A stretch of DNA of 64,000 nt, from sequence record OZ346228.1; one strand, given 5' to 3'. Source of the DNA: a phage. Below the pieces are notes generated by a model. The model saw only the letters and a program-made list of their open reading frames with translations, was not told the origin of the DNA and ran no database searches. Each line of letters starts with the position of its first letter. Position 1 is the stretch's first letter. Shown here one piece after another: positions 6,940 to 62,394 of this stretch. Position numbers and translations under genes: made by a program.

Positions 6940-7328
6940 TGAAAAATATTTGGGATATCGATATCTTTGAAGCCTCTAAGCTTGATGGTGCTGATGGAGT
7001 GATTATGGTGTCTGATGGCAAAGCAACACTAACTTCCGGAGATATCATCTATGCCTTGGACGAGCTGGCGCTTCTGAAATCTACCGGTAACACTTTAGAG
7101 GAGCGTCTTCAAGGCTTCGCCTTCAAAGAAGGCACAAATACCGCCATGATGTGCACCACACGGACAGTTCAAGTTGGTAACGGTGTCTATATGATCATTG
7201 CTGTGTGTCCTAAATTCAGCAACGTCAACAAAGATGATGCTGACGCTGTCAACGATGTGGTTGTTCTCTTCGTGGGTGACGCTATGGCAGATCTGATGAA
7301 TGCAGGAGAAGCAGCAAATGAAGACTGA
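6936..7328 (+). CDS. hypothetical protein
   Basis: Start overlaps upstream stop; RBS GAGGAAG. Confidence 0.55.
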   Translation: MMKNIWDIDIFEASKLDGADGVIMVSDGKATLTSGDIIYALDELALLKSTGNTLEERLQGFAFKEGTNTAMMCTTRTVQVGNGVYMIIAVCPKFSNVNKDDADAVNDVVVLFVGDAMADLMNAGEAANED

Positions 7329-7966: not shown

Positions 7967-8332
7967 ATGGAACAAATGAACGATCAAGCGTCGGTTGCGA
8001 TGAACGAGCAAGAACAACCTCAAGAATTTTTCTTAGGGTTAAGTAAAGATCAAGTGTCTCTTCTGCTAGTGCTTTCTTCTTTCATGGGAAGACTTCAGGA
8101 GCTCACACAACAGCCAGAGGCTGAACAATTATTCCAAGCTTTGCGTGAAGAAGAAAAATATCGTCGTTTGGACTATGCCTTAGGTTGGGTAGCTCAACAA
8201 CGAGATATGCTGATGGCCCTCTCTGGGACCACAAGTTTTGCAATGGGGCTGTTGGCTCAAGTTCAGGACAAATTAATTCAAGCAGGGTTTGCACACACGG
8301 CAAACACTAACGAAGAACAAGGAGACAAATAA
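7967..8332 (+). CDS. hypothetical protein
   Basis: RBS CGGAG; stop overlaps next start. Confidence 0.55.
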   Translation: MEQMNDQASVAMNEQEQPQEFFLGLSKDQVSLLLVLSSFMGRLQELTQQPEAEQLFQALREEEKYRRLDYALGWVAQQRDMLMALSGTTSFAMGLLAQVQDKLIQAGFAHTANTNEEQGDK

Positions 8333-9558
8333 TGAGCGTTATTCAACAATTCGCTAACCCGATGAATCCGCGTGAAACTGTTTTACTGGCTCACGGCATG
8401 ATTAAACGTGTCAGCATCAAGCCTATCAAAGGTGCTGATCCTACAACAGGTATTAAAACCACTGTGTGGCAAGGTAAGAAAATTGAATCCAGCCACACCA
8501 TCTCTTTACTGATTTCTGAACTGGATTCCTCTGATAACCTGCTTCAAGGTGGTGAAGAAGTTTGGATCAGCATGGGTGATAAGCTGCTTAAACCTGGTCA
8601 TCAAGACTCTGTCTCTGTTAAAATTGATGACAAGTGGGAAACCGTAACGCCGGGATGGATCGTAAATATTCCTTTGAAGGCAAACGAGCATAACGGTAAG
8701 ACCTATTACAAAGGCTCACTGGCTAAGATGGTCAAGCTGGGTGCAGGAGAGGCTCCAGCAGCGACTCAGCAGCAAAAACAGCAACAAGGTGCACAATCAC
8801 AAGGCCAGAAGCAGAAACCTCAGCAGAATGCCAATCAGGACGTTTTACGCATCTATGGTGATGTGACTCAGATTGTTGGCAACGTGGTTACTGTTAATGA
8901 CCACAAGATTGGCGAAGGTGCTATGGTTGTAACTGATGAGCAGCTTAAAGACCTGGTGGTAGGTGGTCGTGTTGCAGCCATTGTTGACAAAGACACCGGA
9001 AACATTATCAGTGGTTTCAAGGCCTATCCTCCTAAGGCAGAGAACGGCACTCAAGGCTCTGGTGGCAAGCGTAAATCCTCTTACGACCCTATCGGTGTGG
9101 AAACGGGGCATAGCATCAATGCGTTGCAGATCATCCTGGATCGCGGGTTTAAGGTAGACGACCCACTGGGCGTGGCTAAAACACTGCACGTAGTCACCAT
9201 TGAGCTTAAGAAAGAGTATGCTCAAGCCACCAACCGAGCTGAAGATGAAGTAGGTGCCAGTGTCGGTAATGCGGTGTTGAACGCTTGTCGCCGTATTGAC
9301 AAGAAAACGAAAGTTGATGATTTTGCAGTGGCAATTACTGCAGAAGCAAAAGATGTCTTGACTAATCTAGCTGAGCCGTTGTACGATTGGATCAAGAACG
9401 GTGCTGAGTCCACTGACCATCAAGAACCTCAGGCTGCCAAACAGGAAGCAGCTCCACAGCAAAACACTGTAGACGCTCCTCCTGTAAATGATGCGGAAGA
9501 TGACCCAATGGATCAGAATCCAGCACAGTACGTCTTTGATGATGACATCCCATTTTAA
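8332..9558 (+). CDS. SSB-like replication protein with E. coli SSB C-terminal tip
   Basis: RBS AAGGAG; 408 aa with Q-rich linker; last residues ..YVFDDDIPF match the E. coli SSB tail DFDDDIPF; core fold not recognisable by eye. Confidence 0.6.
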   Translation: MSVIQQFANPMNPRETVLLAHGMIKRVSIKPIKGADPTTGIKTTVWQGKKIESSHTISLLISELDSSDNLLQGGEEVWISMGDKLLKPGHQDSVSVKIDDKWETVTPGWIVNIPLKANEHNGKTYYKGSLAKMVKLGAGEAPAATQQQKQQQGAQSQGQKQKPQQNANQDVLRIYGDVTQIVGNVVTVNDHKIGEGAMVVTDEQLKDLVVGGRVAAIVDKDTGNIISGFKAYPPKAENGTQGSGGKRKSSYDPIGVETGHSINALQIILDRGFKVDDPLGVAKTLHVVTIELKKEYAQATNRAEDEVGASVGNAVLNACRRIDKKTKVDDFAVAITAEAKDVLTNLAEPLYDWIKNGAESTDHQEPQAAKQEAAPQQNTVDAPPVNDAEDDPMDQNPAQYVFDDDIPF

Positions 9559-13104: not shown

Positions 13105-13620
13105 TGAAAATTCCTGGCATATCAAGTATAAGGGGGATTTCTAAAATGGATTTCCTCCTTTTGATATTTCACCGGGCTGGATATTTTAAAATTCTTAGAA
13201 AATCAGAAAATGGATCGAAAACTAAAATGGATTTTTCAGAGTAGGCGCGACAAGCTGAATAACTCATCCTATCGTTTGCACCATATTCCAGGCCACCATT
13301 ATAGATTTCCCACACATGCTAACCTCTCCCTACTAGAACTTCCTCCACTTACCCTTGACCTTCTATGGTAACAATCTAACCGCTATCTTGAAGTTGCGGT
13401 GCAGCTTTCCAGGTACTCGATCTACTTTTCATTTCAGGGCTTGGATTTTCTGAAAATTTTTCTCGATAAATTTCTCAGTACTCGATCTGTTTTTCGTTTT
13501 CTGAATCGGATTTTCTGGAAATCGTTCCGGCTCTCAACCTGAAATTTTTGGGGACGAAATCGATTTTTCGTTTTCAGAAATGGATTTTTAAAATTTCTAT
13601 ATGGGAATATTTTAGTGGAT
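13105..13620. repeat. Non-coding repeat region (iteron-like direct repeats)
   Basis: No credible ORF; AAAATGGATTT x3, GTACTCGATCT x2 inside two ~55-nt direct repeats, GGATTTTCTGRAAA x2. Confidence 0.5.
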
Positions 13621-13704
13621 ACTGTTTTATAGGAAATTGTTACGGAGGGTAATTAGCATGCTAATTAAATTTATTAAATGCGAGGAGTTCTCATTTAGAA
13701 TTTT

Positions 13705-13870
13705 GAATGATAATCATTCTCGTTTGCAGAATAACGGGCAGGCCCGGTGATTGTCTCCCGGCCCCTGTTGCCCCGGCTTGTTATTATAGTATCACACAGG
13801 ACAAAGAAAGCAAGGACTTTTTGCATAAATTTTTAAATGATAATGATAACCGTTCTCATTTTATGCAGCG
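13705..13870. promoter_or_regulatory. Two Fur-box-like palindromes, each followed by a GC-rich tract
   Basis: GAATGATAATCATTCTC (13705-13721) matches about 15/19 of the E. coli Fur box GATAATGATAATCATTATC; second copy AATGATAATGATAACCGTTCTCATT at 13845-13870. Confidence 0.35.
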
Positions 13871-14560: not shown

Positions 14561-14564
14561 GTAT

Positions 14565-14593
14565 TGACATACAGTCAGACACCAAATACACTA
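14565..14593 (+). promoter_or_regulatory. sigma70-like promoter (weaker -10)
   Basis: TTGACA followed at 17 nt by TACACT. Confidence 0.4.
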
Positions 14594-14624: not shown

Positions 14625-14810
14625 ATGAAAACCACTACCTTTAATTTTGATAATGCAGACTTTTCTTTTTCTGATGTCAAGAACTGCCGCCGTGATCGTG
14701 GATTTTACAAGGCTTATAATCTGGTGGGCCTGGACGATGACAATAATTTGCACGAAGTAGCTGAGATCCAGCTTGACAGATTGGACGGGAAAGTACTAAA
14801 AACTTATTGA
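14625..14810 (+). CDS. hypothetical protein
   Basis: RBS AAGAGG. Confidence 0.55.
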   Translation: MKTTTFNFDNADFSFSDVKNCRRDRGFYKAYNLVGLDDDNNLHEVAEIQLDRLDGKVLKTY

Positions 14811-14811
14811 G

Positions 14812-14858
14812 TTTATTTTTAGATGGCCTTGACACCAGGGCCATCAATAAAGTAAACT
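14812..14858 (+). repeat. Conserved post-stop intergenic element, copy 1
   Basis: TTATTTTTAGATGGCCTTGACACCAGGGCCATCAATAAAGTAAAC; 7-bp stem GATGGCC/GGCCATC around TTGACA. Confidence 0.6.
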
Positions 14859-14890
14859 AACCACAGTTGAGCGGAAAAGGAGGCTTAAAG

Positions 14891-15010
14891 ATGAGCACTA
14901 CACGCCAGCACACAAAGGTAACCATCATCGTTTGCATCATTGGGTACATCCTGGCGCAAATGTTGATGGGTAGCGCCAACGGTGTCGCAAAATTTTTCTT
15001 AAACTTTTAA
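14891..15010 (+). CDS. small hydrophobic peptide (39 aa)
   Basis: RBS AAAGGAGG; predicted TM helix VTIIVCIIGYILAQMLMG; below the ORF-track cutoff. Confidence 0.4.
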   Translation: MSTTRQHTKVTIIVCIIGYILAQMLMGSANGVAKFFLNF

Positions 15011-15038
15011 TTGACAAGCTAACTTAAATCGATATAAT
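15011..15038 (+). promoter_or_regulatory. sigma70 consensus promoter
   Basis: TTGACA, 16-nt spacer, TATAAT. Confidence 0.65.
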
Positions 15039-15089
15039 AAGCACATAAACGGGAAAACTTCCCAGAACACACAAAAGGAGAAAAACACC

Positions 15090-15431
15090 ATGACTACTAT
15101 GACCGCCTCAGAAAAAGCTATGCAGATCGCTGAACTGAAAAAACAGATCGCAGACCTTGAGAATAAGATCGATAACTTTGAAATCGACGAGGACAAGTAC
15201 GACGAAAACTATGATGAATGGTTAGACGAGATCTACGGCGAAATTATGATCGGAAACATTTCTTTTCTTCCGTCGCGTATCCTCAAGGAGCTAGATCCTA
15301 TCGCTTACCGCTGCGGATTTAGCGACTACATCGACAGCCTGGATATTGAGGACGATGAAGAATACCAGGAATTACAGACAGAGTTAGAAGAAGCAAAAGA
15401 AGAGCTTGCGGAGCTGGAAGAAAACGAGTAA
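15090..15431 (+). CDS. highly acidic protein (candidate DNA mimic)
   Basis: RBS AAAGGAG; about 36 of 113 residues D/E; first gene behind the consensus promoter. Confidence 0.65.
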   Translation: MTTMTASEKAMQIAELKKQIADLENKIDNFEIDEDKYDENYDEWLDEIYGEIMIGNISFLPSRILKELDPIAYRCGFSDYIDSLDIEDDEEYQELQTELEEAKEELAELEENE

Positions 15432-15432
15432 G

Positions 15433-15479
15433 CTTATTTTTAGATGGCCTTGACACCAGGGCCATCAATAAAGTAAACT
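15433..15479 (+). repeat. Conserved post-stop intergenic element, copy 2
   Basis: Near-identical to 14812-14858. Confidence 0.6.
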
Positions 15480-15520
15480 TTATACTGTTAACACTGAACT
15501 AATGCATAGGAGTTAAAACC

Positions 15521-15766
15521 ATGGCAGCACTAATCACCAAATATTATGCCCCTACCAACACCAAAAGCGCCCGTATCATGGTAAAAGGCTTCGGACGTAA
15601 AAAGGTGTACACCTGGGATTATGCCTTAGACACGGAAGACAACTACACCAACGCAATGACCGATTTTATTAATGAACTAAATAAGCAGATCTTGACAAGT
15701 TATAAAGTGACCGATATTGCTTATATAGGTGAAGGCGGGATCTGTTTTGTAGGCATTGTGAAATAG
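15521..15766 (+). CDS. hypothetical protein
   Basis: RBS/start ATAGGAGTTAAAACCATGGC, identical 20-mer to that of ORF 19764. Confidence 0.55.
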   Translation: MAALITKYYAPTNTKSARIMVKGFGRKKVYTWDYALDTEDNYTNAMTDFINELNKQILTSYKVTDIAYIGEGGICFVGIVK

Positions 15767-15767
15767 T

Positions 15768-15812
15768 TATTTTTTCGGTGGTCCTGGTTGCAGGGCCATC
15801 TATAAAGATAAT
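15768..15812 (+). repeat. Diverged copy of the post-stop intergenic element
   Basis: TTATTTTTTCGGTGGTCCTGGTTGCAGGGCCATCTATAAAGATAA. Confidence 0.3.
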
Positions 15813-15840
15813 TTATTAACACCATGAAAGGAGAAAGTAC

Positions 15841-16194
15841 ATGATCAGCGGGGCAAGTTTTATTATTGGCGCTATTGCTACGGCTTTAATTGTAAATAAG
15901 ATCCAGGATAAAAAGGAAAGAGGAAGTACCGCCCTTGCAGAATATCCATTTTGGGCATTCAACGATAACGAAGATTATATTATAAAGTATAAAAATAAAG
16001 AAGGTGACCAAGTAACACCGCGACCGATCCCGGCTTACAAAATGCAGGAAACACTATACCGCCTGGAGGCGGGTGGCGCAAAAATTGTAGACTTTTGGGG
16101 ATACGACCACACAGATCAGGAAGTTATAAAGCGCCGTATCCGGGCTATTCAGGCCAATATTGAAGTTAGCAAGGGGGGAATATATGAAAATTAA
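15841..16194 (+). CDS. hypothetical protein with N-terminal TM helix
   Basis: RBS AAAGGAG; hydrophobic N-terminus. Confidence 0.55.
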   Translation: MISGASFIIGAIATALIVNKIQDKKERGSTALAEYPFWAFNDNEDYIIKYKNKEGDQVTPRPIPAYKMQETLYRLEAGGAKIVDFWGYDHTDQEVIKRRIRAIQANIEVSKGGIYEN

Positions 16195-16381
16195 TTTCGA
16201 GAAAATTGTAAAGCGCCCTCATGATTCCGAAGAGCTGCCAGAACGCCGCCAGCGTAACAATAAACTGAATAAGCCAAAAAGGTTTGGGAAGATCTGGCGT
16301 AATCATTATGATCGTAAATTGCCCGGCCTACTTTTGGAACGTGAACGACAGGCAGAACGATACCGCCATAAAGACAAATAA
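16184..16381 (+). CDS. small basic protein
   Basis: RBS AAGGGGGG; R/K-rich; overlaps upstream ORF by 11 nt. Confidence 0.45.
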   Translation: MKINFEKIVKRPHDSEELPERRQRNNKLNKPKRFGKIWRNHYDRKLPGLLLERERQAERYRHKDK

Positions 16382-16390
16382 CAACCAACG

Positions 16391-16418
16391 CCCCGCCATT
16401 GTGCGGGGCTTTTTATTT
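16391..16418 (+). terminator. rho-independent terminator
   Basis: CCCCGC-CATTGT-GCGGGG then TTTTTATTT. Confidence 0.55.
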
Positions 16419-16538
16419 CTATCCTACGAATAGCGCCCCTGGTTGGCCCTGTAAGCGCCAAAAAGGCCCCCACCTATGCAATCGCCCCTTTAACCTGAAA
16501 ACATCGCCCAGGGCCGTTTCATGGCGTTAAAAATATCA

Positions 16539-16566
16539 TTGACATCGTCAACAGGTTAGCTATACT
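16539..16566 (+). promoter_or_regulatory. sigma70-like promoter
   Basis: TTGACA, 16-nt spacer, TATACT. Confidence 0.6.
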
Positions 16567-16598
16567 AACCACATCAAAGAGAGAAAGGAGTAAACGCC

Positions 16599-16859
16599 AT
16601 GCGTAAATTAAAAAATTTTGATAAAGTTGATGTTATCCTGAATAATTTTTACTACTGCAACAACAAGGCTATTTGGTGGCGTGATAGTTCCACCGATAAA
16701 GTCAGGGCGCGCTTTCTTCAGGGGCACTGGCAAGGCCGCCCAGTGATTAAAATCATGGGGCAATCGGTAGCGTTTAAAAATTGCCGCCGTGTTGATGACG
16801 TTGAGGAGATTTTAAACATTTTGCGCCACAATAATTTAAAAAATAGTGTTGACAAGTAA
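16599..16859 (+). CDS. hypothetical protein
   Basis: RBS AAAGGAG. Confidence 0.55.
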   Translation: MRKLKNFDKVDVILNNFYYCNNKAIWWRDSSTDKVRARFLQGHWQGRPVIKIMGQSVAFKNCRRVDDVEEILNILRHNNLKNSVDK

Positions 16860-16876
16860 GCCTCAATAAGTATACT
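16849..16876 (+). promoter_or_regulatory. sigma70-like promoter
   Basis: TTGACA, 16-nt spacer, TATACT; overlaps 3' end of upstream ORF. Confidence 0.6.
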
Positions 16877-16933
16877 TAAACACACAGGCGGGAAAACTTC
16901 CCGCCACTAACAAAGAAAATAGGAGAAAATATC

Positions 16934-17557
16934 ATGACCACCGTTAACATTACCGCAGGTTACAATTTATCTTTCGACGTGCTGACCGACGAACAAAAAG
17001 AAAAAGCCGTTGAAATGGTCCGCGAAAGAGAAGAACACAGCGGGGATAACTTTTTTGCAGAAAGTGTAATTGAATACTATAAAGAATATGTTTTTCCAGA
17101 GTATGGCCTTGAAGATACCGAAGTACATTGGTCAGGCTTTTGGTGCCAGGGTGACGGCGCGTCAATCAGTGCTGAAAACGTGGATTTAGAAAAATTTTTA
17201 CGTAAAGTAAAGGCCCTGACCAAGTTCCGATCAATTCGTCACTTGTTCGGCACAATGCACGATGGCGAGTTATCAGCCAGTGTTGAACGCGACAAGTACA
17301 GCCATTACAGCCATGAAAACACTGTAAGCGGGTACATTGATACCACTTGGCTAGATCTGACCGCCAAACAAGAAAACAAAGTGGAAGACCTGGAAGAACT
17401 GATCACCGAGACGGTACGGGAGCTATCCCGCAAGGTTTACGTAGACCTGGAGGAGGCCTATCTAGAACAGTTCACCGCAGAAAACCTGATCGGCCTTATC
17501 GAGGCCAATGATTGGCGGTTTGATGTCGATGAATATGGTGAGATGACTTTTTCATAA
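16934..17557 (+). CDS. hypothetical protein
   Basis: RBS ATAGGAG; 207 aa. Confidence 0.6.
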   Translation: MTTVNITAGYNLSFDVLTDEQKEKAVEMVREREEHSGDNFFAESVIEYYKEYVFPEYGLEDTEVHWSGFWCQGDGASISAENVDLEKFLRKVKALTKFRSIRHLFGTMHDGELSASVERDKYSHYSHENTVSGYIDTTWLDLTAKQENKVEDLEELITETVRELSRKVYVDLEEAYLEQFTAENLIGLIEANDWRFDVDEYGEMTFS

Positions 17558-17565
17558 ATAAAGTG

Positions 17566-17593
17566 TTGCAATAACCTAAAAACCTGCTATATT
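17566..17593 (+). promoter_or_regulatory. sigma70-like promoter
   Basis: TTGCAA, 16-nt spacer, TATATT. Confidence 0.45.
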
Positions 17594-17647
17594 AAAACTC
17601 AAGGGGGCAAGACGTTTGCCCCAACACAAAACAAAGAGGATAACATC

Positions 17648-18028
17648 ATGAAAAACACTACCAAGGCTATTGACACCGTTATGTTTAACCTGGTTACATT
17701 CCGTGAAGATATGAAAGATCTTCCTCGTGAAACAGTGTGCGACCATATCGAAAACTATCGCAAACTAATCAAAGAGTTGCCTTTAAAACGTGATCAATAT
17801 GCGGCTAACGCCATGCTTAATGCCATGATCAAAAAGATGATCCAGTGTGATTTAACCCTGGCCTATGATTATGCAGGCGGTCGTTTTGCAGTATACAATC
17901 AGCCCGTGCCCGGTATGAGCACCACCGAAGAATTGCACGCGCTCAATCTAAAACAAGACGTGTGGGATAGTATGCCTCGCGTGGTGGTATGGGTAGAAAG
18001 CGGAAAGATTTACGGCGATAATTTTTAA
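17648..18028 (+). CDS. hypothetical protein
   Basis: RBS AAAGAGG. Confidence 0.55.
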   Translation: MKNTTKAIDTVMFNLVTFREDMKDLPRETVCDHIENYRKLIKELPLKRDQYAANAMLNAMIKKMIQCDLTLAYDYAGGRFAVYNQPVPGMSTTEELHALNLKQDVWDSMPRVVVWVESGKIYGDNF

Positions 18029-18036
18029 TCAGGTAG

Positions 18037-18064
18037 CAGGCGGCATATTTGCCGCCTTATTGTT
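18037..18064 (+). terminator. putative terminator hairpin
   Basis: GGCGGC-ATATTT-GCCGCC then TTATTGTT. Confidence 0.5.
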
Positions 18065-18092
18065 AATCAGAACTGTAAAAGAGGTACATAGA

Positions 18093-18464
18093 ATGGAATT
18101 TATTATTTTGGCTGTATTGGTTGCCTTGTTTAACGCCTGGATCGCTGGCAAGATGGGAAGATCCGCCTTTTTATGGTTTATTATATCTATTTTCCTGGGG
18201 GTGGTTGCAACTATTGTATTGGTTATCCTTGCAATTGTTGACAAGGGGAATAATAGAAAGGGTAAAGTATTTTCAGACCTGTACGACGCTCAAACGTTTG
18301 TCAACGCCTATTATAGTGATCTTCCAGTCTCCCTACGTTGCAGCCTTGCACAACAGGTTTTCGATGAAGCTAAAACCAGAGATCACGCCCATGAGATTTG
18401 TTTAACTGAGGCGGATCGCCTATTTGAGAGGAATAGAAAATATGTGGACCAGCCGTTTAAATAA
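18093..18464 (+). CDS. hypothetical membrane protein
   Basis: RBS AAGAGG; two predicted TM helices. Confidence 0.55.
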   Translation: MEFIILAVLVALFNAWIAGKMGRSAFLWFIISIFLGVVATIVLVILAIVDKGNNRKGKVFSDLYDAQTFVNAYYSDLPVSLRCSLAQQVFDEAKTRDHAHEICLTEADRLFERNRKYVDQPFK

Positions 18465-18648
18465 TGCCACGTTAATTAACCCCTTTAGTAAAGATTTGAA
18501 GCCAGCCGCCTGGCGGGATGGATTCAATAACGAACGCTTTATTTTCAGGCCTGATCTTGAGGAATTTTATAACAATGGATCGAACAACAGCGGAGATAAT
18601 TTTTCTTGTGGTGTGTGTCGTGATAGGACTCCTGGGGGGCCATTGTAG
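18442..18648 (+). CDS. hypothetical protein (uncertain)
   Basis: RBS GAGAGG; overlaps neighbours; alternative small TM ORF 18575-18700 in another frame. Confidence 0.3.
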   Translation: MWTSRLNNATLINPFSKDLKPAAWRDGFNNERFIFRPDLEEFYNNGSNNSGDNFSCGVCRDRTPGGPL

Positions 18649-18807
18649 ATCGCGTCACTACTACCAGAAGGAAAGGGGAGACGATGACAACCAAGGATAA
18701 GCCCCGCACCGATAAGGTGCGCCGTGTTATGGTATGGCTTGAGATCATCGCCCTTGAAATATTGTTAGGCGTAGGGATGTATTTTATCTCTGTAAGTAAC
18801 TGATAAC

Positions 18808-18840
18808 GGCCCCCGATCCCTGGGGGGCCTAACTTTTTTC
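18808..18840 (+). terminator. rho-independent terminator
   Basis: GGCCCCCGATCCCTGGGGGGCC then TAACTTTTTT. Confidence 0.5.
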
Positions 18841-18946
18841 AAAAAATTTTTCTTCCGGGGTGTTGCAATCCGGTCCTGAATATGGATAATAACAATCAAC
18901 GGGGAAACATCCCCACCAACACAAAAACCAGAAAGGAGAAACAAAA

Positions 18947-19147
18947 ATGAGCAACAATATCCGCGTTATTAACTTCAAAAAAGAAGAAAAAATTGCCGTG
19001 CTGATTGACGGTCAAGAAATCTTCAAGGGCGACTATGAAGATCATCAAACGGCGATTAGTATCACTCGCGTGATTGGTTACCATAATTTTTACCCCCAAG
19101 GCGCTGAGGCGGCGGTTAAACGAATCAAAGAGATTGTAGGCCTGTAA
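18947..19147 (+). CDS. hypothetical protein
   Basis: RBS AAAGGAG. Confidence 0.55.
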   Translation: MSNNIRVINFKKEEKIAVLIDGQEIFKGDYEDHQTAISITRVIGYHNFYPQGAEAAVKRIKEIVGL

Positions 19148-19149
19148 AA

Positions 19150-19196
19150 TTTATTTTTAGATGGCCTTGACTCTAGGGCCATCAATAAAGTAAATT
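19150..19196 (+). repeat. Conserved post-stop intergenic element, copy 3
   Basis: TTATTTTTAGATGGCCTTGACTCTAGGGCCATCAATAAAGTAAAT. Confidence 0.6.
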
Positions 19197-19540: not shown

Positions 19541-19598
19541 TTCCGCAAATGATGCAAAAGAAGGCCCCTAGCAGGGCCTACAGCGATATAATCACATA

Positions 19599-19630
19599 AA
19601 GGCCATGCAACCGCATGGCCTTTATTATTT
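19599..19630 (+). terminator. rho-independent terminator
   Basis: GGCCATGC-AACC-GCATGGCC then TTTATTATTTT. Confidence 0.55.
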
Positions 19631-19763
19631 TGGCGTTACAGCGGCCCCAAGGCGCTTAAAAATTTTTTAAAGAAGTACTTGCATCAAGCCCTACAATATG
19701 GATAATAGGACGTGTCAGGGGGGGAGGCCCCAATCATTAACCGGATAGATAGGAGTTAAAACC

Positions 19764-20938: not shown

Positions 20939-21984
20939 AAGCACATAGCCGCCAGATCTCAGAATTTACGTACGCTCACCAGTCTATAGCCTGCTAAGTA
21001 TTTATTCCAACCATAGAATAACGGAATAGTCAATACCTGCATAAAATAATTATTCGTGTAAACTGCATAACATAAATCGGCTAGGATGTCAACATTTTTC
21101 GTAAACAGCTCGAAATTATAACGGTGAGTTATAATAAACAGAGAAATCTTTAGTCGTCTAATGTTTACTGTACATTACTATACTGACTGGAATCATTAGA
21201 TGACTAAGAGAAAGATAAGAAATCATTAACAATGCAATTGTTTTATTCGTAACAATAAGGCAACTATGCAAACGGATGGCATGGCGCGACGGAGTCGCGA
21301 CATAATATAAAAGCAGTAACCATCACCCCCGTGATAGTTTGTCTGCAAACTATTAATCAGATCATAGTTGCCTTGTATTTAGTTAATCATGACATAACAA
21401 GCAAGGCAACTATAGATCTGCTAATAGTTGCCCTGCTTTTATATTATGTCATAGATTATTAGCCTGTTAATTGTTAGTCAGTCAAATCAACAACGTTATC
21501 ATTTCAGTCTTTATTGTTGTTGATCGTTATTGTTATCATGCAAACGAATGGCATGGCTTATCATTTTTGAGTAAACAATCTATACGTGAACAGTGAGGCA
21601 TGCAATAGTAAGGGCGGGAATAATGAGAGTGTAAACTGTCAGGCATGTCAATTATATCAATCGTGTCAGTTATGTCACCATTATGTCAGACAAGTTTTTC
21701 TCCTCTTTGTCAAGTGCTGCATGAAAAATTTACAATCTTGTATGGTAGCATTTTTGCGGCCCTGTTTACATTCAGTATTGTATGTATAATCCTTGTTGTG
21801 TGGGCGTTTAGACGTCTAGACGGTCAGAAGTCTGCAGGTTAATATCTAATCTATCGGCTGCTAACTATATCCCACACAAATAGTAAGAAATATAATTGTT
21901 ATGTGCGTAAACAGTAACTCATGTTATCAATCCCTGTATGTATCGCCAGTGGTGCGCATAATGGGTATTATGTTAAATTGCCCG

Positions 21985-62237: not shown

Positions 62238-62311
62238 ACCAGTAAAAACTTAAATATCTGTACTATAAGGATTCGTATGTTTTATGTTCGCCATGGAACG
62301 GATACTATTAA

Positions 62312-62394
62312 CTGTCCGTGATACGGACACTACTGTCCGTCACGCGGACACATCTGCCCGTAATACGGACACTAACTGTCCGTGATACGGACAC
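62312..62394. repeat. Four tandem 19-bp palindromic sites, 21-22 bp period
   Basis: CTGTCCGTGATACGGACAC, CTGTCCGTCACGCGGACAC, CTGCCCGTAATACGGACAC, CTGTCCGTGATACGGACAC; followed by ~130 bp AT-rich DNA. Confidence 0.6.

Follow-up and report, generated by a model that had tools for sequence, protein, structure and literature searches.

An element repeated behind early genes of an rV5-like coliphage

The window analysed here, a stretch of 64,000 nucleotides from sequence record OZ346228.1, belongs to a Vequintavirus (rV5-like coliphage), and about 120 Vequintavirus genomes (rV5, Murica, vB_Eco_Alma, the BASEL isolates and others) match the region under study at 94-98% identity. Its genes are encoded on the + strand up to ~21 kb and on the - strand beyond that point, and between 9.6 and 21 kb they form a block of small + strand genes in which a 49-nt element occurs four times (Table 1). 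The eight genes flanking the element offer a single Pfam match and otherwise no protein family. This match, which lies above the cut-off with an E-value of 2.6e-11, links the gene at 16184-16381, the last one in the unit of copies 1-3, to PF08200, the T7 'Bacteriophage 1.1 protein'. Gene 1.1 of T7 sits directly 3' of R1.1, a site cleaved by ribonuclease III (RNase III).

A repeat search of the window revealed one family of four + strand copies, with identities of 98%, 92% and 71% for copies 2, 4 and 3. In this regard, the first-pass annotation had reported a nearly unchanged 45-bp element at 14812, 15433 and 19150, which is correct except for coordinates that were one base off: two perfect occurrences of the 45-mer lie at 14813-14857 and 15434-15478, and a third one, with three mismatches, occupies 19151-19195, whereas none is expected from 100 dinucleotide shuffles. 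The diverged copy noticed at 15768 also proved to be real, as the 71%-identical copy at 15765-15813. A covariance model applied at every position of the 64 kb recovered just these four copies, with 69-77 bits on the + strand versus 28-40 bits on the - strand. Their placement after early-gene stop codons held as well. The preceding gene stops with TGA, TAA, TAG and TAA for copies 1 to 4, and each copy either begins within the end of this codon, on its final base or bases, or follows it immediately; all of them end 33-45 nt ahead of the next start codon.

About 121 relatives carry the element, with BLAST matches in Vequintavirus only, and the covariance model gave no match in 41 kb of the Seunavirus PVP-SE1. 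At the corresponding place PVP-SE1 lacks the whole block, terminators and tail genes coming immediately after the homologue of gene 8332-9558, and the elements consequently occupy genus-specific accessory early DNA. A tblastn search with the product of the 207-aa neighbour gene retrieved jumbo-phage homologues only and no other context in the Vequintavirinae. Two other origins were rejected: a host-derived repeat, as 5,426 complete E. coli genomes contained no match, and a known RNA family, for which Rfam 15 gave only sub-threshold chance matches (SurC, 27.8 bits versus a gathering score of 80).

The copies are distributed in two predicted transcription units. The first unit runs from the promoter at 14564 through a gene, copy 1, a gene, the promoter at 15011, a gene, copy 2, a gene, copy 3 and two genes to the terminator at 16390, and the second one from the promoter at 18863 through a gene, copy 4 and a gene to the terminator at 19596. 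In the first unit, the promoter at 15011 drives gene 15090-15431, with copies 2 and 3 downstream. The elements lie inside these predicted promoter-to-terminator units and would not be needed either as promoters or as terminators. Public records conflict on the element: copies 3 and 4 are annotated as 45-nt terminators in Murica (KT001917), copies 2 and 4 as promoters (PhagePromoter) in Gotham (MT682716), and the Alma and rV5 records leave the element unannotated. The rV5 genome paper lists 33 promoters, P195 and P192 among them, and 20 terminators, and the element is absent from both tables.

Table 1. Copies of the element in the window, their parts and the signals of the units that contain them
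Feature	Positions	Strand	Details
Sigma-70 promoter (predicted)	14564-14592	+	TTGACA, 17 bp, TACACT; P195 of rV5; unit with copy 1
Copy 1	14810-14858	+	starts on last base of TGA (14808-14810) of gene 14625-14810; 77.2 bits; -26.5 kcal/mol, z -6.6
Copy 1, lower stem (RNA fold)	14810-14819/14849-14858	+
Copy 1, internal loop (RNA fold)	14820-14821 and 14846-14848	+
Copy 1, upper stem (RNA fold)	14822-14831/14836-14845	+
Copy 1, tetraloop (RNA fold)	14832-14835	+	ACAC
Copy 1, hexamers	14829-14858	+	TTGACA, 18-bp spacer, TAAACT; 10/12 matches
Consensus sigma-70 promoter	15011-15065	+	TTGACA, 16 bp, TATAAT, then 5' stem-loop (CGGGAAAACUUCCCAG); P192 of rV5
Copy 2	15431-15479	+	architecture as copy 1; starts on last base of TAA (15429-15431) of gene 15090-15431; next gene 15521; 74.9 bits; -23.5 kcal/mol, z -5.4
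Copy 2, hexamers	15450-15479	+	TTGACA, 18 bp, TAAACT; 10/12 matches
Copy 3 (diverged, 71%)	15765-15813	+	overlaps TAG (15764-15766) of gene 15521-15766; next gene 15841; 69.1 bits; 20/20 pairs kept via G.U and two flipped pairs; tetraloop GUUG; no -35 hexamer
Intrinsic terminator	16390-16419	+	7 G-C pairs and TTTTTATTT; closes unit of copies 1-3
Promoter (predicted)	18863-18920	+	TTGCAA, 16 bp, GATAAT and 5' stem-loop; drives gene 18947-19147, then copy 4
Copy 4	19148-19196	+	directly 3' of TAA (19145-19147) of gene 18947-19147; next gene 19241; 74.8 bits; -22.2 kcal/mol, z -3.4; tetraloop ACUC, G.U closing pair; second lower-stem pair A-U, not G-C
Copy 4, hexamers	19167-19196	+	TTGACT, 18 bp, TAAATT; 9/12 matches
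Intrinsic terminator	19596-19635	+	13-bp stem and TATTTTGG; closes unit of copy 4

The sense-strand fold and its conservation

The RNA of the sense strand adopts the same fold in all four copies, in which a 2x3 internal loop separates a lower from an upper stem, each of 10 bp, and a tetraloop closes the top, with energies from -22 to -26.5 kcal/mol (z from -3.4 to -6.6). This architecture differs from the first-pass description, in which each copy combined a T-run, a 7-bp stem around TTGACA and a -10-like TAAACT. The T-run forms the 5' side of the lower stem, where it pairs with AAAGTAAACT, the TAAACT belongs to the 3' strand of this same stem, and the supposed 7-bp stem is an upper stem of 10 bp, one U.G pair included, above a second stem of equal length.

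Copies were gathered from the window, 11 GenBank phages and 2 IMG/VR contigs, 14 genomes in all, giving 21 distinct indel-free sequences that could be aligned. Standard pairs fill 98.6% of the 420 cells of this alignment, compared to 35-57% once the partners are shifted by 1-3 columns, and none of 500 shuffles reached either the pairing or the covariation score that was observed. Four lower-stem pairs show double changes (G-C/A-U; U-A/C-G; U-A to A-U, G.U and G-C; A-U/U-A), and one of these goes from A-U in the window to G.U in rV5 and G-C in A12a. Four pairs of the upper stem show one-sided changes, always between Watson-Crick and G.U, and the 21 distinct copies all share an unchanged 3' arm, CAGGGCCAUC, with three wobble changes in the 5' arm of copy 3. 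Moreover, the one-base insertions found in orthologues map to the internal loop. These data show the repeat family and its position, as well as a sense-strand fold conserved by compensatory and wobble changes.

The selected molecule is the sense-strand RNA, because the G.U pairs become A.C on the other strand, whose fold is much weaker. For copy 3, the antisense fold reaches -10.4 kcal/mol versus -24.6 kcal/mol for the sense one, and with DNA folding parameters its extended fold is lost. A DNA palindrome, either as an operator or as a cruciform, was consequently rejected as the selected feature, given that G.U keeps the pairing and the DNA-parameter fold of copy 3 disappears.

Two orthologous copies appear damaged: copy 1 of Gotham (7006-7050 of the stretch compared) lacks 5 nt of the 3' arm (GGGCC), and copy 3 of Alma (2455-2506 of the stretch compared) carries two one-base insertions, which may represent either real decay or sequencing errors. 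Throughout the region, 17 GenBank entries (MG0656xx) labelled 'Campylobacter phage' share 94-99% identity with Vequintavirus genomes of E. coli; the single one that was opened, A12a, is flagged UNVERIFIED, and the host label of these records is doubtful.

A candidate RNase III signal and its rivals

The interpretation that we favour, with moderate confidence, is that the element would act as an intercistronic RNase III processing and 3'-stabilising signal in the early polycistronic mRNA, where the enzyme, the cut site and the effect on stability are inferred from the fold and its likeness to studied substrates. A hairpin of this kind is newly recognised in the rV5-like group, whereas the kinds it resembles, phage RNase III signals and the cassettes called PeSLs (promoter-early stem-loops), are already known. 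Upon transcription, the U-run starting at the stop codon pairs with the far-side AAAGUAAACU, and the GC-rich core forms a second helix, giving a hairpin of ~20 bp (10 + 10) with a 2x3 internal loop and a tetraloop cap. Most likely, the host RNase III would bind this hairpin and cleave it once, 13 nt past the tetraloop, in the 3' half of the internal loop. Transfer of the R1.1 register (13 nt 3' of the tetraloop) predicts the cuts at 14848/14849, 15469/15470, 15803/15804 and 19186/19187, where the internal loop meets the lower stem. After such a cut, the promoter-proximal cistron would end in a protective 3' hairpin, the cistron downstream would be set free as an RNA of its own, with a 5' monophosphate 35-55 nt ahead of the start codon, and the stability and yield of adjacent early genes would become uncoupled.

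Comparison with T7 was made at positions 890, 1468, 3138, 5887 and 6450, which are reportedly its RNase III sites (Dunn and Studier, 1983) and are supported as such here only by the hairpins found there. Folding of these early intergenic regions gave a conserved hairpin at each of them, with a stem of 9-13 bp (9-10 in four of the five) and a loop of 3-5 nt. The element resembles R0.3, R0.5, R1, R1.1 and R1.3 in that all are intercistronic hairpins in the polycistronic early mRNA of a virulent coliphage, with an upper stem of 9-10 bp capped by a tetraloop and, across an asymmetric internal loop, a lower stem, which add up to about two turns. In T7, the weak E. coli promoters B and C adjoin R0.5 and R1, a precedent for weak host promoters next to such sites. 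On the other hand, there is no sequence homology between them, the covariance model finding no match in the T7 early region, and the internal loop of the element is smaller, 2x3 compared to the asymmetric 4/5 loop of R1.1 (PMC6121014). Its lower stem is also different, nearly all A-U and beginning at the stop codon, and the rV5-like phage is an unrelated myovirus in which cleavage is predicted.

Work done with E. coli RNase III revealed that its substrates typically span two helical turns, and that internal loops confine the cut to a single phosphodiester, with a protective hairpin remaining at the 3' end (PMC1540722). The same work identified as a positive determinant a distal box with U-A/U.G beside the tetraloop, showed that G-C or C-G at position 2 of the proximal box blocks binding, and indicated that the distance from tetraloop to cut has to be at least 11 bp, the sequence of the tetraloop being unimportant (PMC1540722). 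The element agrees with this description in length (10 + 10 bp in all four copies, against ~20-22 bp for two turns, with pairs conserved across the 21 sequences) and in the 2x3 loop placed mid-helix in every copy. The top of its stem consists of U30.G39, U31-A38, G32-C37 and the tetraloop, which closely follows that of R1.1 as folded here (U.G, U-A, C-G and GCAA), and the distal box U31-A38/U30.G39 is present in copies 1, 2 and 4 and all their orthologues. In the proximal box, position 2 is A24-U45 (G.U in copy 3), an A-U pair as in R1.1, and position 4, where G-C and C-G should likewise be absent, is unpaired, in the internal loop. Altogether, the processing site advanced in the first-pass annotation gains support from a sense-strand hairpin with covariation and from a T7-like geometry with the key pairs, with cleavage itself as the deduced step.

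Several observations weigh against this interpretation. Copy 3 differs at both boxes, with C30-G39 instead of U.G in the distal box and the G.U at proximal-box position 2. Given that every distal-box substitution tested in the minimal substrate uR1.1 lowered its reactivity (PMC1540722), copy 3 may be cut poorly by RNase III, or something other than this enzyme may be the reader. The match to the U-A/U.G box is in any case suggestive but not diagnostic, because other natural T7 sites, as folded here, do not all carry it. In addition, all the aligned sequences come from one genus with >90% identity, and consequently contain few independent substitutions, and the literature searched on RNase III in rV5 and on Vequintavirus transcriptomes held nothing relevant and no transcript-end data for rV5-like phages. 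Finally, copies 1, 2 and 4 conserve the TAAACT strand and the loop bases A33 and C34, which belong to TTGAC, beyond what pairing requires, an excess that points to an added constraint at the DNA level, presumably that of a promoter.

This last point leads to a possible though doubtful alternative, a composite of the PeSL type in which a sigma-70 early promoter (a UP-like T-run, TTGACA, 18 bp and TAAACT) would restart transcription for the next gene while the stem-loop attenuates or terminates the upstream transcripts. PeSLs of RB49 and phi1 comprise a stop codon in an AT-rich stretch, a promoter, a stem-loop with G-T pairs and a Shine-Dalgarno sequence, and their promoter and stem-loop were each active in lacZ fusions (PMC2839356). 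Like the PeSLs of RB49/phi1, T4/PST and KVP40/nt-1 (Arbiol 2010, PMC2839356; Comeau 2014, PMC4122927), the element is a repeated intergenic cassette among small ORFan early genes, and the full layout is found in the four copies, from the AT-rich stop codon through a stem-loop with G-T pairs that overlaps the promoter region to the Shine-Dalgarno sequence and the start codon. The hexamers of copies 1, 2 and 4 fit this picture, as does the TTGAC that stays invariant in these copies across the 14 genomes while the next two loop bases vary, a -10-like strand that is constant where the outer pairs of the lower stem break, and the promoter calls in Gotham. A strong consensus promoter in every member, as in the PeSLs, is nonetheless missing here: the promoter part is sub-consensus, with 9-10 of 12 matches in three copies and none in copy 3, and the conserved feature is the RNA fold. 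Copy 3, without a -35 (and in A12a also without a credible -10), keeps this fold by compensatory changes, and the 18-bp spacer grows to 19 bp by a one-base insertion in copy 1 of Ph203 and copy 4 of SYGMH1, whereas the clear promoters nearby have spacers of 16-17 bp and those at 15011, 16849 and 18863 a 5' stem-loop that the element lacks. Against a composite also count the absence of a U-tract 3' of the hairpin, the terminator scan, which calls no copy, and the omission of the element from the rV5 tables. Moreover, the element resides in a Vequintavirus, another phage subfamily, and not in a T4-like hyperplastic region, BLAST shows no similarity to RB49, and its stem is GAUGGCC/GGCCAUC instead of the GGGG/CCCC of PeSLs. 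The restart promoter proposed in the first-pass annotation therefore survives in part: sigma-70 activity of copies 1, 2 and 4 is possible, albeit on the less probable side, and would be compatible with an RNA role, but a promoter is not the conserved feature, because copy 3 keeps the fold without a -35, two orthologues have a 19-bp spacer, each unit has a near-consensus promoter upstream and none of the 33 promoters of rV5 corresponds to the element. As for the stem-loop, the PeSL authors read it as a terminator from a reduced lacZ expression (PMC2839356), a read-out that RNase III cleavage would also give, and the assay cannot separate both explanations.

The remaining alternatives dispense with cleavage. 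A passive 3' stabiliser or barrier, comparable to the REP-like hairpins of E. coli operons, would remain uncut and block 3'-5' exonucleases after downstream cuts by RNase E, so that the upstream cistron would outlive the downstream one; a stable, conserved sense-strand hairpin directly after stop codons and within operons is what it would look like, yet a simple GC hairpin would suffice, and the mid-helix internal loop, the two-turn length and the U-A/U.G box stay unexplained, and this reading is unlikely. Still less probable is an operator controlling the downstream gene, bound either by a phage or host RNA-binding protein or by a DNA-binding dimer on GATGGCC-N10-GGCCATC. The invariance of the 3' arm next to the wobble changes in the 5' arm of copy 3, and the recurrence of the 24-nt hairpin in Pseudomonas prophages (see below), hint at sequence-specific reading, but copy 3 loses the half-site sequence while keeping its pairing, and G.T pairs make no sense in double-stranded DNA. 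Regarding an RNA-binding protein, the flanks examined contain no candidate gene common to rV5-like phages and Pseudomonas prophages, and a hairpin that ends 33-45 nt ahead of the start codon leaves the ribosome-binding site free. A plain intrinsic (Rho-independent) terminator, finally, is hardly tenable. This reading can appeal to a GC-rich hairpin after a stop codon and to the Murica annotation, and the first-pass annotation had also considered it; the T-run, however, lies 5' of the hairpin and is paired, both strands read U-rich, hairpin, A-rich, with AAUAAAG instead of a U-tract after the hairpin, and the scan that called canonical terminators at 16390, 18038, 18808 and 19596 detected none of the four copies. 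Furthermore, in two cases (15521-15766 and 15841-16381) no other promoter serves the genes that follow in the unit.

Module exchange, a related hairpin and the surrounding region

A second layer, not exclusive with RNase III processing, operates at the DNA level, where the copies, as 49-bp direct repeats, recombine and cause the gain or loss of the gene module between them. In three of the 14 genomes (ime, ECP32 and IMGVR_2051223002) a single hybrid copy combines the left flank of copy 1 with the right flank of copy 2, and the 621-bp module that lies between these copies (a 39-codon gene, the promoter P192 and a 113-codon gene) is missing. The module is present in 114 records, versus 121 for the element. 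Indels of ORFan modules made by recombination are also typical of PeSLs, copies of which recombine to move the flanked modules in T4-like phages (PMC2839356, PMC4122927), and the repeats are in this way documented as break-points for the gain and loss of early gene modules. A different indel, the 693 bp that the window lacks with respect to rV5, was rejected as a repeat-mediated deletion: its junction at 14763-14769, with ~7 bp of overlap, falls outside the repeats, ~45 bp upstream of copy 1, and creates a fused 61-codon gene (14625-14810) that starts as the homologue of ORF195, keeping its 5' part, and finishes with the 3' end of the homologue of ORF194.

A scan of IMG/VR for the arms of the hairpin retrieved about 22 contigs of Pseudomonas-type prophages with an identical 10-bp upper stem (GAUGGCCUUG/CAGGGCCAUC), in one copy each, whereas two control patterns with a shuffled order of base pairs gave 2 singletons each; a scan with the pattern GGGCCATCNATAAAG was unspecific and gave mostly chance matches. 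The prophage hairpin has a GNRA tetraloop, continues past a small mismatch into a lower stem shorter than that of the element (UUUCC/GGGAAA), and is located just 5' of the first ribosome-binding site. Related phages contain compensatory variants of the stem, of which PS-1 and phiPSA1 keep U.G/U-A/G-C at the top and LESphi3 differs there. In contrast to the element, it occurs once per genome, in a leader, and in hosts with 56-64% G+C. The stem shared by Pseudomonas and rV5-like phages would fit a common reader such as RNase III, and common ancestry, transfer, convergence on a good RNase III substrate or chance are all possible sources of the identity.

The leader that ends in this hairpin is an observation in its own right. 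Lambdoid prophages of Pseudomonas and Halopseudomonas share an unannotated, conserved early leader of ~250 nt, which comprises a promoter, a boxA-like CGCTCTTTAACA, a conserved RNA of ~150 nt, the hairpin and the first ribosome-binding site, in this order. No Rfam family matches it, and it is undescribed as far as we have searched.

If RNase III does act on the element, about 120 rV5-like phages, some of them used in biocontrol and in the BASEL collection, would have their early operons processed into separate mRNAs of differing stability, as occurs in T7, and this would change how the expression of many early genes of unknown function is read. It also suggests a second look at the 'terminator' half of PeSL cassettes. 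A broader and rather improbable proposal, advanced here as speculation, is that PeSL stem-loops could generally be RNase III signals and not terminators, that the near-optimal 24-nt hairpin (GAUGGCCUUG-NNNN-CAGGGCCAUC) could be portable across rV5-like coliphages and Pseudomonas lambdoid prophages, and that the 49 bp could join a processing site, a weak promoter and a homology patch that moves early ORFan genes.

Other features of the window deserve a brief description. The strong sigma-70 promoters at 15011-15065, 16849-16905, 17566-17622 and 18863-18920 all have a G/C stem-loop within ~10 nt of the start (CGGGAAAACUUCCCG, GGCGGGAAAACUUCCCGCC, GGGGGCAAGACGUUUGCCCC and CGGGGAAACAUCCCC). These four sites resemble the subclass of PeSLs with the stem-loop downstream of the -10 and would yield 5'-terminal protective hairpins; a sequence link between this neighbouring promoter cassette and the PeSLs of RB49 was looked for and none was found. 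Upstream of the element block, a non-coding stretch (13403-13588 / 13544-13708) contains three direct repeats of ~47-57 nt, spaced by 65 and 74 nt, together with AT-rich inverted repeats, and is possibly an iteron-like or regulatory region matching the 'non-coding' box of the rV5 map. Far downstream, at 62309-62394, four tandem repeats of 21-22 nt (TAACTGTCCGTGATACGGACAC), each with the palindrome GTCCGT..ACGGAC, look like a row of protein-binding sites. Where the genes switch from the + to the - strand, a 22-nt inverted repeat (21150-21207) shows 82% complementarity across a 14-nt spacer.

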